Below, piece after piece: positions 6,237 to 19,467 of a stretch of DNA of 33,273 nucleotides; the stretch's first letter is position 1, and the number at the start of each line of letters is the position of its first letter. The stretch spans positions 1-33,273 of the IMG/VR virus record IMGVR_UViG_3300034349_000012. One strand, given 5' to 3'. This DNA comes from a virus (lineage: Duplodnaviria > Caudoviricetes). Below the pieces are notes generated by a model. That model ran no database searches. It saw only the letters and a program-made list of their open reading frames with translations, and was not told where the DNA came from. The translations under genes and the position numbers were made by a program.

Positions 6237-7709
6237 TTAAACCGGCATACTATCTATATTTACGGTGCTTATTCCTTGTTCTCCTAATATCGTATTAACT
6301 TCGTCGTCAATGGCTTGCTTGGTCCAATCTGGATGTGCCATTTGTACCTTTACCCTTGTGCTTGCAGCTTGCGCCCTATTTAATGTATCTATGGTTCCGC
6401 TAACTTGTCCTAGGTCAAAACTTAAACTATCTTGAAATTCTATAGATGGCGCTAATACTTCTATATTCGGTGTCTTAAATATTGATTTATCTATTTGCAG
6501 CAACATTTCAATTATATCCTGCAATGCCTGCTTAAAAAATATTTGTTTCTTGCCGGTTGTTATAATACTTTTTCTTTCCCTAACGTTTAAAGCTAGCCCG
6601 CTTTCGCCTGCTCCGGATATGTTCATTCCAAAACTTTGTGGACTATATCCGGAATCTGTAATTGCTTGTAATACTAATTGTGTGACGGTGTCCTTATGCT
6701 CTGTCACTCTTAAATTAAATTGTACTTGATCTATTCCCTTACCTTTAGCGCTTAATGGATCTATGTCTAATGCTGTAAATATTTCACGATCTGCATTAAA
6801 TTTAAATTCGCCATTGTCGCGCTCTAGCCATTGTTCCGGTACAATAATCCGCGCTTGGCCTAACTTAATTTCTTTTATCCAACTGGTATAAACTTGATTA
6901 ATGGAATCAAATAATCCTTCATTCCCTTGGTAATCGCTATTACCTAATCCACTACCCCTAAACATTCTATTAGGTTTTACGTTGGGAATATATCTGACCA
7001 TAATATCATCTATGCCGGTTAAAATTTCGTCTTGCATTTCCGCTGTATCATCCAAATCTGTTAGCGGTACTCTAACGCCTAAATTATCAGATGTCCCCCT
7101 ATATAAAGCATTTATAACCATGCCTTTAGTGTGATTTTCTAGTAATCTATATGTGTATCTGTCAGTTTCGCATACGATTTTATGAAAAGTAACTTCTTTT
7201 AAAAATCCCCATTGGAAACATGGTAACGCATTGTCGGCTTGTATAATGTCAATAATTGGAATATCTTTAAATTCTACATCCCAATTAGGTTTTAAAAATA
7301 CTCCACCTAATGCGCTTGCGCTTTCTGCTGCCTCTAATAATTTAGAATAAAATTCACCTTTCTGCAATATAACATCCATTCTATCTTGTGTTGCCTTGGC
7401 TCCCGCGCTTGCATTATCCATAAATGCATCTGGTATTCTTATAATAGGTTGTTCACCAAATAACATGTTGGCGCTTGTGGCTGCAATATCTGCGGCAACG
7501 GGTACGTGTAAATAGGTTTCTATTTCCCGCCTTAACTGGCGCAATGCAAATCTATTGCTTGGTACATATGGCGCTTTTAAATGATCTGTATATAAATTAA
7601 TTAAGTTTTCAATATTGCTGCTATACCACGCGGCCCATTCTGCATACTTATAATATACATTCTTCCAACGTTTCGGTAACCATGGCGTGTTATCTAATGG
7701 TAATGCCAT
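6237..7709 (-). CDS. Portal protein (SPP1 gp6/A118-like)
   Basis: 490 aa after terminase; SA.MLFGE, YIPN, SGYSPQSFG, ESG.AL motifs. Confidence 0.9.
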   Translation of the reverse strand: MALPLDNTPWLPKRWKNVYYKYAEWAAWYSSNIENLINLYTDHLKAPYVPSNRFALRQLRREIETYLHVPVAADIAATSANMLFGEQPIIRIPDAFMDNASAGAKATQDRMDVILQKGEFYSKLLEAAESASALGGVFLKPNWDVEFKDIPIIDIIQADNALPCFQWGFLKEVTFHKIVCETDRYTYRLLENHTKGMVINALYRGTSDNLGVRVPLTDLDDTAEMQDEILTGIDDIMVRYIPNVKPNRMFRGSGLGNSDYQGNEGLFDSINQVYTSWIKEIKLGQARIIVPEQWLERDNGEFKFNADREIFTALDIDPLSAKGKGIDQVQFNLRVTEHKDTVTQLVLQAITDSGYSPQSFGMNISGAGESGLALNVRERKSIITTGKKQIFFKQALQDIIEMLLQIDKSIFKTPNIEVLAPSIEFQDSLSFDLGQVSGTIDTLNRAQAASTRVKVQMAHPDWTKQAIDDEVNTILGEQGISTVNIDSMPV

Positions 7710-13366: not shown

Positions 13367-13455
13367 ACCGGATTATACTATACATTCATACCGGATTATA
13401 CTATACATTGTAACCGGATTATACTATACATTCATACCGGATTATACTATACATT
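13367..13455. repeat. Four iterons (replication origin)
   Basis: ACCGGATTATACTATACATT x4 at 13367, 13390, 13413, 13436 (23-bp period), upstream of rep. Confidence 0.9.
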
Positions 13456-13498
13456 ACCCTATTGCAATCTATGGCTGTCACTGGCTTTGATGCCCCCC

Positions 13499-13546
13499 TA
13501 TTATCTTAGTTATTATCTTATCTATTATATTAGTTATTATAGTAGT
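13499..13546. repeat. AT-rich repeats, candidate DNA-unwinding element
   Basis: TATTAT(C/A)TTA(G/T)-like 12-mers about 45 bp from the iterons. Confidence 0.55.
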
Positions 13547-13704
13547 ACAAAACCGCCCTCTTTTTATCTCGATTTTTTTAATCTCTAAATTATTTTATAC
13601 ATTGATAAAATAGGCCATAATTTAATTAACAAATATAGTGTCGTTTTATGAATGAAAATGTTTTCAGAATATTTGTAATATATTTACTATAAAGTGCTAT
13701 ACTT

Positions 13705-13842
13705 GAAATATCAGTTTTCCTCTGATTTCACTTATTGTAAAGTTGGTTTTTTGTATAATGGTTCTTTAAAAATAACTTTCACACAAAACACTATATGTTT
13801 ATTTTCCCCCCATGGGAAATATTAAAACATATGGTGTTTTTT
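13705..13842 (+). ncRNA. Putative ~140-nt structured RNA divergent from rep
   Basis: TGcTATACT (13695-13703), two hairpins, then a long terminator stem 13785-13842. Confidence 0.45.
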
Positions 13843-14115
13843 GTCGAATATAGATTAAACCACAACTAGTACATAATAAATTAAAAACATTTTCCGGCGC
13901 TGCGCGGGTTTTGCTGTTCAAGATGCCATAACTTCAACCCTAAACAAAATTATAAATAACCTAAGTAATGGTATCAATATTATATAAAAATCAATCTGTG
14001 GCCATCTGTGGCCTTTAGAATTATATTTCTAATACAATACTCTGGGTATATTATTTTAAAATGGATGTAGCGGTTATAATTTGATTTATTTAATGTTTTC
14101 CGCTCCCAAATAGGA

Positions 14116-14230
14116 TATAATAATAAATAGGATCTATCGACGGTTTAACATCCCATCATAGATTACTAAATATAATGTCAATTTACTTATTCGATAGATA
14201 GAAAAGTATGGATGCTCACCATGCTTTTTT
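14116..14230 (+). ncRNA. Small-RNA cassette 1
   Basis: TATAAT 14116; GGATCT-opened stem; TTACTAAAT 14163; unique segment; terminator AAAAGTATGG/CCATGCTTTT+T. Confidence 0.55.
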
Positions 14231-14241
14231 ATTTTGTTTTA

Positions 14242-14371
14242 TGATATAATAATAGCGGAATCTTTTAATAGTTTTATTCAAACAATTCTATTAAAAAATT
14301 ACTAAATAGACTATGTAACATTTTAACATTTTAATTTCACTCTTTGCAGCGGACTTGATAAAACCGCTGCA
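14242..14371 (+). ncRNA. Small-RNA cassette 2
   Basis: TGaTATAAT; GGAATCT; stem TTTTAATAG/CTATTAAAA; TTACTAAAT 14299; hairpin TGCAGCGG/CCGCTGCA (weak T-tail). Confidence 0.6.
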
Positions 14372-14381
14372 TATGTATTTA

Positions 14382-14530
14382 TGATATAATAAAAATGGAA
14401 TCTGTTAATAGTATTTTTACGGTGATTATGCCATTAATAGGTTACTAAATATAATTTATGTTTGTCTAATATTTTTACCTTGTCCCAATAAACGCCGCGG
14501 CTGTGATGATCCGCGGCGTTTATATTTTTA
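14382..14530 (+). ncRNA. Small-RNA cassette 3
   Basis: TGaTATAAT; GGAATCT; stem AATCTGTTAAT/ATTAATAGGTT; TTACTAAAT 14442; terminator ATAAACGCCGCGG/CCGCGGCGTTTAT. Confidence 0.6.
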
Positions 14531-14695
14531 TTTATTTTTTATTTTAATTAACGCGTCGCATTTTAACCCTGCAATTAAACACGCCATTGTTATTTTATCT
14601 ATCTCATTAGAATCTATTATTATACTTTCTTCTATCAATCTATCTAATATTTTTAAATATATGCTATCTTCTTTATTATTTTTGCTGCATATCAT
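14528..14695 (-). CDS. Small hypothetical protein (not in ORF track)
   Basis: MICSKNNKEDSIYLKILDRLIEES..., 55 aa, SD GGAGG, ATGA overlap. Confidence 0.55.
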   Translation of the reverse strand: MICSKNNKEDSIYLKILDRLIEESIIIDSNEIDKITMACLIAGLKCDALIKIKNK

Positions 14696-16252: not shown

Positions 16253-17161
16253 TTATTTTTTAGTTTGAAATGGTGTATCTATAAAGGTTTCTTGATATTC
16301 CAAATCATTAAAATTATTAAATTCCTGCTCTACCATTTCCATATTTTTTAGATCTTCATAAAGTTTTACTGCTTGCAAATAAGTTAGATCTTTTAATTCC
16401 TTTTGTTTAACATGTTTATATGAAAATTTTATAAGATCTGGCAATGTCATTTTATTGCTTTTTGCTTGGTCCCATATTGCAGCTTTTTGATCTAAATTAA
16501 TTAATTCCTTTTCTTTTAATGCTTTCTTGGTTTCCTTTAGCTTTTTTTGGGCCTCTACTTTGTCCTGCTGAATTTTTGCTATTTCTTTAACCGCTTGTAC
16601 CTTTGGTTTAATTTTATCTTGTGGTGCTTGCTGTGGCTCTAATTGTTGTGGTTGGTCCGGTAATGTGTTAAATTCTTCCGGCGAATATATGCCGCTAATA
16701 TTAAATGCTTTTCTTAATGCTTGACTTTCTGCTACTTTTTGAATCATAGTCTTAGGTTTTTCTTTCCAAATCTTTGAGTTACCATTGTATTCTAAAAAAT
16801 CCACTTCTACATAAAACGTATTAGTCATATCTTTTCTGAATACTTCACAATAGCCCACCAAATCGCCGCCTCTAACGCTCCCATTTGTCCCGCTTTTCAT
16901 CCCGTCAAACATTCCGGATCTATGCGCTAATGTTAGGAATCCATCACGCCCCGCGAATATTTGCGCCACGCCGCCATATTTCATAAAGAATATTTCTTTT
17001 GTTAAGATGTCTAAATTATATTGTTTACTCATATAAAGTAATAATTCAAACTCGCTACTGGTTGCCCCTGCTGCGTATACACTTTTAATTAATTGTACTT
17101 GCTCGCTATTATAGTTTATTTGCTGCGGCTGCTCTGGAATTGTTGTTAATCCTTTGTTCAT
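16253..17161 (-). CDS. bet: Single-strand annealing recombinase (Bet/RecT family)
   Basis: YNLDILTKEIF, GRDGFL..AHRSG.FDG, W.EKPKTMIQKVAESQALRKAF..SGIYSPEE. Confidence 0.9.
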   Translation of the reverse strand: MNKGLTTIPEQPQQINYNSEQVQLIKSVYAAGATSSEFELLLYMSKQYNLDILTKEIFFMKYGGVAQIFAGRDGFLTLAHRSGMFDGMKSGTNGSVRGGDLVGYCEVFRKDMTNTFYVEVDFLEYNGNSKIWKEKPKTMIQKVAESQALRKAFNISGIYSPEEFNTLPDQPQQLEPQQAPQDKIKPKVQAVKEIAKIQQDKVEAQKKLKETKKALKEKELINLDQKAAIWDQAKSNKMTLPDLIKFSYKHVKQKELKDLTYLQAVKLYEDLKNMEMVEQEFNNFNDLEYQETFIDTPFQTKK

Positions 17162-18768: not shown

Positions 18769-19467
18769 TTATTCGTATTTTAACATAAATTCATGCAACG
18801 CTTGGCTAATAAGATCCTGCTGCTTAAAGCTTTTATTATCATTACAAAATTTAATAAAATTTAATAAAGTTTCTGTGTAAACCTTAAAAGATCTTGTTTT
18901 TAAATCTCCGGCCATAACTTCACTTGATATTTTTATTGATCTGCTTTGATTTTCTTTATCTGGTAACTGCTTTGATTTTCCTAACTCTCTATCTAAATCA
19001 TATAGTATATTACCATAATTAGTAACTATATCTAATAGATTATCTAATCTTTCGGATAATAGTTTTATTTTTTCGTGATCTTCTGTAGCTTCTTTATATT
19101 TTGTATCTTCTATTGGCCATAATCCTGCATCCGTTTCATCTGGTGCCTCTTCTGGTGTCCAATCATCTATAGTATTATCTTTATCTAAATTTTTTGGACT
19201 CTCTGCCAATGCTGCATTTCTTCCATCCGCTATTCTTGGATCTAATATATATTTTTTATCGAATAAAATATAACCGGCCTCTTTAAATTTAATTCTATTC
19301 GACTTTTTATAGATCTTTTGTTTTTGTTCAATGCTTGTTAATGTTTCCCCTAAATCAATACATTTATTTATATAATAAACTTGGTCCGCTATTTTTAACA
19401 TATGAAATAAATCCGCTTTGTTTTTGTTTTCTGCTTGTAAAATATCTTCTAATACAAAACCATCCAT
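18769..19467 (-). CDS. Plasmid-type DNA-binding protein (N-terminal HTH-like, coiled coil, C-terminal RHH-like)
   Basis: QVYYINKCIDLGETLTSI...FKEAGY N-terminus; KTRSFKVY...FIKFC...KQQDLISQALHEFMLKY C-terminus. Confidence 0.55.
   Translation of the reverse strand: MDGFVLEDILQAENKNKADLFHMLKIADQVYYINKCIDLGETLTSIEQKQKIYKKSNRIKFKEAGYILFDKKYILDPRIADGRNAALAESPKNLDKDNTIDDWTPEEAPDETDAGLWPIEDTKYKEATEDHEKIKLLSERLDNLLDIVTNYGNILYDLDRELGKSKQLPDKENQSRSIKISSEVMAGDLKTRSFKVYTETLLNFIKFCNDNKSFKQQDLISQALHEFMLKYE

Follow-up and report, generated by a model that had tools for sequence, protein, structure and literature searches.

The question raised by this locus is what three tandem, similarly built units in a viral genome encode and how their products would act. 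An earlier note had described them as small-RNA cassettes, each joining a constant scaffold to a variable, guide-like segment. The window, meaning the whole stretch of DNA that was analyzed, is the whole record of 33,273 nt and has a terminal overlap. This overlap, together with a contig of the likely source run that joins both ends, indicates that the molecule is circular. Genes for a terminase, portal, capsid, tail, lysis, RecT, and a Rep3 initiator all lie on the minus strand, and the 33-kb element is a circular phage-plasmid. The window DNA was covered without differences at a depth of ~13 in one peat metagenome run, the sole run containing it, and this run may be the source of the DNA. 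Lower-depth variant contigs in the run at 16343-16520, 2573-2705, and 1984-2095 (recT, capsid, and a neighboring gene) represent a related strain or phage, and none was reported across the array.

The 20 best plasmid matches to Rep were 44-50% identical and came from Clostridium estertheticum and C. tagluense. Because the relatives of Rep are plasmids of these species, the 30-genome genus with the best Rep DNA matches was taken as the candidate host group, and the true host may differ. None of the host-group spacers matched the phage, and the loose ends of the source-run contigs showed no spacer with repeats on its flanks. A 34-nt match in genome G157 was considered as a host spacer and rejected as coding sequence. 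The earlier note had seen no obvious effector encoded by the phage. This was borne out among the phage proteins scanned, as no RNA-loaded effector was recognized with PHROGs (30 ORFs), Pfam (51 ORFs), or NCBIfam (17 ORFs). A 232-aa ORF (18769-19467, minus strand) belongs to a Bacillota family that, among named proteins, most resembles RHH/HTH proteins, and in the plasmid state its product may serve in partition or DNA binding. A 96-aa ORF was without a reliable match, and a neighboring ORF of 186 aa had no homologue among 70 candidates of similar length.

The three units occupy 14114-14525 on the plus strand, between the region upstream of rep and a convergent operon. Each consists, in order, of TATAAT, ~6 nt, a hairpin, the invariant sequence TTACTAAATA, a segment of 29, 36, or 36 nt, and a closing hairpin. 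The -10 box of unit 1, GATATAAT (14114-14121), is without a TG extension and without a clear -35. It is followed by a scaffold (14128-14172) that forms a long hairpin with a bulged A and ends in the motif (14163-14172), by a variable segment of 29 nt, or 30 counting the last A of the motif (14173-14201), and by an intrinsic-terminator-like hairpin with a U tract (14196-14240, core stem from 14202). Unit 2 begins with an extended -10 (TG-n-TATAAT, 14242-14250), and its scaffold hairpin (14257-14308) ends in the motif at 14299-14308. The 36-nt variable segment (14309-14344) then leads into a GC-rich closing hairpin with a weak U tract (14345-14371). Unit 3 also has an extended -10 (TG-n-TATAAT, 14382-14390), a scaffold hairpin (14397-14451, motif at 14442-14451), a 36-nt variable segment (14452-14487), and a terminator hairpin (14488-14530). 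The last ORF of the convergent operon stops at 14528, and this terminator is likely bidirectional, also closing the minus-strand operon.

The positions given in the earlier note were confirmed, with TATAAT at 14116, 14245, and 14385 and TTACTAAAT at 14163, 14299, and 14442; the invariant stem-end motif it reported is one base longer than first thought. The modular anatomy was also supported, as there is a constant part, an abrupt switch to an unrelated, spacer-sized part, and a separate -10 box and closing hairpin for each unit. Its promoters and terminators stood in part. The -10 boxes are present in all three units, but none was called as a full promoter and -35 boxes are absent. A terminator scan called hairpins 1 and 3 but missed hairpin 2, whose U tract is poor. 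Short ORFs on the strand opposite the units, read by eye, were dropped, since they have 12-15 codons and differ between units.

Several other elements were seen nearby. Immediately ahead of unit 1, at 14061-14112 on the plus strand, is a hairpin that opens with GGA and closes with a stem and AAATA. This hairpin may be what is left of a decayed unit, or a terminator that serves as an insulator. A fourth promoter-hairpin-terminator element at 13690-13850 (plus strand) is antisense to the likely rep leader, whose minus-strand promoter (13977-13949) is an 11/12 match. This element is likely a copy-control counter-transcript, and in the related phage L120 the corresponding position (~6240-6360) is occupied by an element of similar build. 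Short direct repeats at 13380-13460, upstream of rep, are likely iterons.

Next, we asked how far the regularity of the array exceeds chance. TTACTAAATA and GATATAATAA each have exactly three copies in the 33,273-nt window, all confined to the array. When 13461-14527 was put through 5,000 dinucleotide shuffles, three copies of one 10-mer spaced 110-170 nt apart had a P of 0.0008, and two such regularly triplicated 10-mers had a P of 0.0002. Whole units folded with z scores of -2.7, -2.9, and -4.3, and weaker values were obtained for the scaffolds alone (-1.6, -1.8, and -2.4). The scaffold hairpin has 13-16 bp, and exactly eight invariant bases follow its 13-bp core stem. The earlier note had claimed that stem pairing is largely kept while the sequence changes. 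In agreement with this, a MAFFT alignment of only three sequences, from which the structure itself was drawn, gave a 16-pair helix with one bulged A that was 91.5% paired and had three two-sided changes. This level of pairing was matched by 27 of 500 shuffles, and slid controls were 30-47% paired. Covariation among the three copies is modest support for the stem. Invariant columns made up 10 of 10 positions in the motif, four of 12 on the 3' side of the stem, and seven of 29 in the segment. The variable segments are unrelated to one another, as first proposed, with likeness no greater than that of shuffles (P 0.09-0.48). Similarity between units is mosaic: unit 2 resembles unit 3 at the 5' end, and unit 1 resembles unit 3 around the motif.

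These data bear on whether the array acts only as DNA, either as operator or partition sites or as decayed pieces of duplicated promoters and terminators, with no functional RNA product. The lack of a full promoter call, the uncalled hairpin 2, the modest folding of the scaffolds alone, and the lack of an array in the closest phage would all fit such a repeat. The compensatory pairing, the same arrangement of -10 box, hairpin start, motif, and closing hairpin in every unit, and the z scores of the whole units argue against it, and we consider a purely DNA-level repeat very unlikely.

Relatives of the array were sought in several ways. Assignment to a known cis-acting Rfam element, which the earlier note had named as grounds for giving up its reading, was looked for across 4,227 families; nothing reached gathering level and the weak matches were terminator-driven. 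None of the outcomes that the note had listed as refuting its reading turned up. The best that the Rfam CRISPR models gave on the array was E 4.4 and 8.2, both outside the motif. No homologous array was found in IMG/VR, GTDB, 401 Clostridiaceae genomes, or the closest phage. Patterns run on IMG/VR gave 116 loci (33 of 64 parts), 117 loci (40 of 64 parts), two loci, and one locus, all negative or at chance level, and the single-locus match apparently lies within coding sequence. A GTDB pattern gave 64 loci, all of which were folded, and none combined a stem closing at the motif with a terminator. A structure screen of 367 sequences yielded 49 candidates, and the best 24 of these 49 were viewed with no homologue among them. 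One similar-looking candidate, L095, was rejected because it reads as coding sequence. A two-unit pattern occurred in 33 of the 401 Clostridiaceae genomes, which was no more than the control, and a pattern search matched none of five prophage-bearing genomes. A motif-free architecture scan missed even the window's own three units.

A covariance model built from the three units (R1) matched two of the 30 host-group genomes at E ≤ 0.5, both unrelated on inspection, and gave one weak match to a host repeat (E 2). The earlier note had suggested that such a model might find arrays with changing segments, but R1 recovered only its own three source units, with whole genomes covered as the best 150 of up to ~3,000 candidates per genome. 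Searches by blastn of the region against phages and plasmids were negative or at chance level, and protein-led searches through Rep, terminase, and portal gave no relatives of the array. A metagenome scan with the terminase as query returned only a copy of L120. This closest phage has a terminase 72% identical and the same gene order, and at the position of the array it carries a different, single promoter-hairpin-terminator element. In the literature outside most subscription papers and preprint supplements, a layout of separately promoted units with this scaffold was undescribed. The three-unit anatomy is real and unusual, and it is so far a singleton.

The variable segments were then compared with possible targets. 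All three contain a -35-like hexamer, matching at 6/6, 5/6, and 5/6 positions; segment 1 has a perfect TTGACA on the opposite strand. In post hoc tests, three segments all with a hexamer of at least 5/6 had a P of 0.03-0.04, and three with one perfect hexamer had a P of 0.006-0.007. The start of segment 1 has seven sites in four of five host-group genomes, six of them intergenic and several promoter-like, compared to six for the control, and the sites have no common PAM. A TCA PAM with the segment-1 seed occurred at the control level. Segment seeds gave nothing above chance against 7.1 kb of cas promoters and leaders from seven cas loci, and no segment had a 24-28-nt match with up to three mismatches in any of the 30 genomes. 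Matches to annotated phages and plasmids were at chance level only. The comparison with host and competing phage genomes that the earlier note had proposed, run here on host-group, phage, and plasmid sequence, found no target beyond chance, and none was found in the phage's own sequence. Exact 16-nt matches to segment 2 in 39 viral contigs had unrelated flanks and no extension. One source-run contig aligns from 14313 onward, a point within segment 2, and carries a GC-rich loose end of 221 nt; this is probably chance.

The segments could also pair directly with messages. The three units would then be paralogous, trans-acting antisense small RNAs, each segment pairing with a different mRNA of the host or of a rival element, with no guide-loaded effector. 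The 5' hairpin would protect the RNA, and the A/U-rich motif would either bind a chaperone or be left over from duplication. In favor of this reading, segments 2 and 3 are mostly unpaired (mean 0.70 and 0.68, compared to 0.50 for segment 1), segment 2 in reverse complement looks like a ribosome-binding site with an ATG after it, and the mosaic similarity between units is what duplication would be expected to leave. However, an invariant 10-mer beside a stem with so few invariant columns and the sudden change to unrelated sequence suggest that a protein contacts a specific sequence and that the register is fixed. Also, no standout duplex was found with phage genes, 485 host-group gene starts, or the leader of the ATPase gene in host-group genome G144 (P 0.07-0.37). 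We regard antisense RNAs as an unlikely explanation.

Segment 2 has one further match. Positions 14307-14323 are identical to 17 nt of an intergenic element in G144, located between a TATAAT box and a strong terminator, and this is the only exact match in the 30 genomes. The G144 element has the shared segment start behind a different 5' part and without a repeat. It is convergent with a Gp49/XRE pair, divergent from an AAA_21 ATPase and TOPRIM pair, and downstream of an AbiD/F gene. The empirical P of a 5'-anchored 16-mer match was 0.06 over all loci compared and 0.02 over Clostridiaceae loci, and for a match anywhere it was 0.41. The match was found neither in five other genomes nor in plasmids, and G144 itself had no second site for the shared seed, no recognizable target, and no Cas6 match. 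We treat this match, which may be due to chance, as a lead and not as support for a reading. The surrounding region (L429/L430, G144:C7 ~52300-56600) is a defense island in which AbiD/F with a canonical abiF RNA and the Gp49/XRE pair accompany the minus-strand, small-RNA-like element at L430:1315-1432; the ATPase and TOPRIM pair is HEC-01A/AbiL/AriA-like. The contig of this island also carries a Rep related to that of the phage.

One reading to which this lead speaks is that the RNAs are guides or decoys of an undescribed, RNA-loaded, non-Cas host protein that reads the bulged-A hairpin and ACUAAAUA and either uses or ignores the segment. The scaffold matches none of the 4,227 Rfam families and no host-group repeat, yet it is invariant at the junction, and the G144 element puts the same segment start beside Gp49/XRE and AAA_21/TOPRIM genes in a genome with no Cas6 match. 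On the other hand, no host RNA matched the scaffold model among the best 150 of up to ~3,000 candidates per genome, there is no candidate protein, and the G144 match may be chance (P 0.02-0.06) and was found neither in the five other genomes nor in plasmids. Such a loader seems unlikely. A more far-reaching version, which we think unlikely, is an undescribed programmable class of clostridial RNA consisting of a bulged hairpin plus ACUAAAUA, a non-Cas host loader, and interchangeable 29-36-nt guides. At least one of these guides would have been copied from a regulatory RNA of a host defense island to switch that defense off.

CRISPR systems of the candidate host group were examined as possible loaders. 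Cas6 was found in seven of the 30 genomes, with arrays at six of the seven loci, and gene order and repeat form point to type I-B. The six arrays (five distinct repeats) have a median spacer of 36 nt (range 34-41). Segments 2 and 3, at 36-37 nt, match this median, and segment 1, at 29-30 nt, is shorter than any of the spacers. One of 18 alignments between units and host-group repeats reached a P of 0.012 and the rest had P > 0.06, in a candidate genus that may not contain the host. The earlier note had likened the motif to the ends of clostridial type I-B and some Cas13a repeats. This held unevenly, with 4-6 of the last eight bases shared with the host-group handles, only 2-4 of eight in the register suggested by the stem, and six of eight shared with a Clostridiaceae Cas13a repeat. 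Arrays with TACTAAA were sought in 401 Clostridiaceae genomes and none turned up, although a control pattern matched 25 times in one genome. Upstream of one cas6 gene (L381, G081:C54, ~13860-14120, minus strand) lies a solitary, near-perfect repeat. By eye, the bases following it agree with 13 nt that lie behind TCA in the cas6 promoter region. It is a candidate CreR-like RNA by which a clostridial Class 1 locus would regulate itself, and it is nearly a true repeat, unlike the cassette scaffold.

The Cas13a likeness raises the possibility that the cassettes are crRNA mimics that occupy a host type VI-A nuclease, as rAcrVIA1 does, or guide it against rival elements. The repeat of genome G402 has a stem followed by ACTAAAAC, compared to a stem followed by ACTAAATA in the cassettes, which accounts for the six of eight matches in register, and the Cas13a spacers of G402 are 32-34 nt. 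According to a review, the repeat bulge is essential in Cas13a and rAcrVIA1 mimics crRNA by shape (PMC13288109). But Cas13a was found in one of 391 Clostridiaceae genomes scored (10 of the 401 were unscored) and in none of the candidate genus, the G402 stem is 4 bp by fold compared to 13-16 bp here, folding prefers a single bulged A, and no RNA target was found. Cas13a mimicry is, in our judgment, quite unlikely. The G402 locus (L419, G402:C350:1-5253) encodes a 1,159-aa Cas13a with candidate HEPN motifs and has two flanking mini-arrays with three spacers in all.

The reading we prefer, with a probability of about 35%, is that the cassettes are crRNA-like anti-defense RNAs loaded by host Cas6/Cascade and resembling Cracr and Racr RNAs in action. 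Each unit would give a small RNA of its own, which would be cleaved at the foot of the 5' hairpin, leaving an 8-nt handle, and taken up by a host Cas6/Cascade complex of type I-B. Once loaded, the RNAs would act as competitors of host crRNAs and direct Cascade to the promoters of defense genes, silencing them. We infer transcription, processing, Cascade loading, and promoter targets from several features. The Cracr-like layout, the hairpin-then-handle logic, the spacer length, and the -35 content are all in keeping with Cas6/Cascade, as are the presence of Cas6 in the candidate genus and the CreR-like solitary repeat. Cracr spacers copy host regulatory spacers, and the recurrence of the segment-2 start in the G144 element (P 0.02-0.06) would fit this. 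The reading is weakened by a scaffold unlike host-group repeats, the lack of a PAM-flanked target, and the shortness of segment 1, as well as by G144, which shares the segment-2 start and has no Cas6 match.

Viral crRNA mimics have so far mostly been found by their likeness to known repeats. If the Cas6/Cascade reading is true, independently promoted, sequence-divergent mimics would be a class missed by such searches, and the cassettes would offer a compact scaffold for clostridia with one promoter per guide. If the loader is instead a non-Cas protein, a pull-down with the three natural RNAs would directly identify a new RNA-guided effector. As long as the array is known from one phage, its value is limited.

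Among known systems, two were set aside. A CRISPR mini-array, in which identical repeats would alternate directly with spacers in one transcript, was rejected because invariance is limited to 10 nt and neighboring units are separated by a closing hairpin and another -10 box. The abiF RNA (RF03085; RCd22) is likewise a promoter-hairpin-terminator RNA of ~100-130 nt in clostridial prophages, but it lies upstream of a toxin gene and has a GC-rich motif, in which the cassettes differ (10.1101/2025.04.15.648962). An abiF mimic, which bears on the comparison with the abiF motif suggested by the earlier note, was rejected since 13600-14600 had no RF03085 match up to E 10 and the 51 phage ORFs had no Abi_2. 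Host-group abiF RNAs, found at four of seven Abi_2 loci, were canonical, unlike the scaffold, and unmatched by R1.

A review and a preprint (PMC13288109; 10.64898/2026.06.03.729762; background also in PMC13187072) describe a 5' stem, an ACUAAA-containing flank, and a spacer-sized segment in rAcrVIA1 and the Cas13a crRNA, a layout that the cassettes resemble. Mimicry by shape, as for rAcrVIA1, needs little sequence likeness. The cassettes differ from both in having a much longer stem, and no linked anti-CRISPR gene was recognized.

The closest parallels are the Cracr and Racr RNAs. According to the Cracr study, CracrVA1 consists of a repeat-like part, a spacer-like part, and a terminator, Cracr spacers copy host regulatory spacers, and Cracrs, often with several spacers, are predicted also for type I-B (10.1101/2024.10.29.618823). 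Cleavage of crlRNAs falls between a hairpin, on its 5' side, and a conserved handle, on its 3' side (10.1101/2024.12.27.630466). Like Cracrs so described, the cassettes place a repeat-like part, a spacer-like part, and a terminator on a mobile element with no cas gene alongside, with hairpin 2 uncalled as a terminator. In contrast, Cracr repeats resemble the host repeat, whereas the cassette scaffold is a 13-16-bp hairpin unlike host-group repeats. Cracrs target cas or creT promoters with a PAM, whereas no target was found for the cassettes, and multiple Cracrs often share one transcription unit, whereas each cassette has its own -10 box and closing hairpin. Racrs, as presented in PMC10651486, are small RNAs with their own promoter in a viral genome, unlinked to cas genes, a setting shared by the putative small RNAs of the cassettes. 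Racr-style, dose-dependent competition would explain the three copies. Racr candidates were chosen there by similarity to CRISPR repeats in sequence and structure, a likeness that the cassettes lack. Judged by likeness to the repeats of the candidate host group, the cassettes fall outside the Cracr/Racr group, and no PAM-flanked target was found. Though not members by sequence, they would most likely work like Cracr and Racr RNAs.
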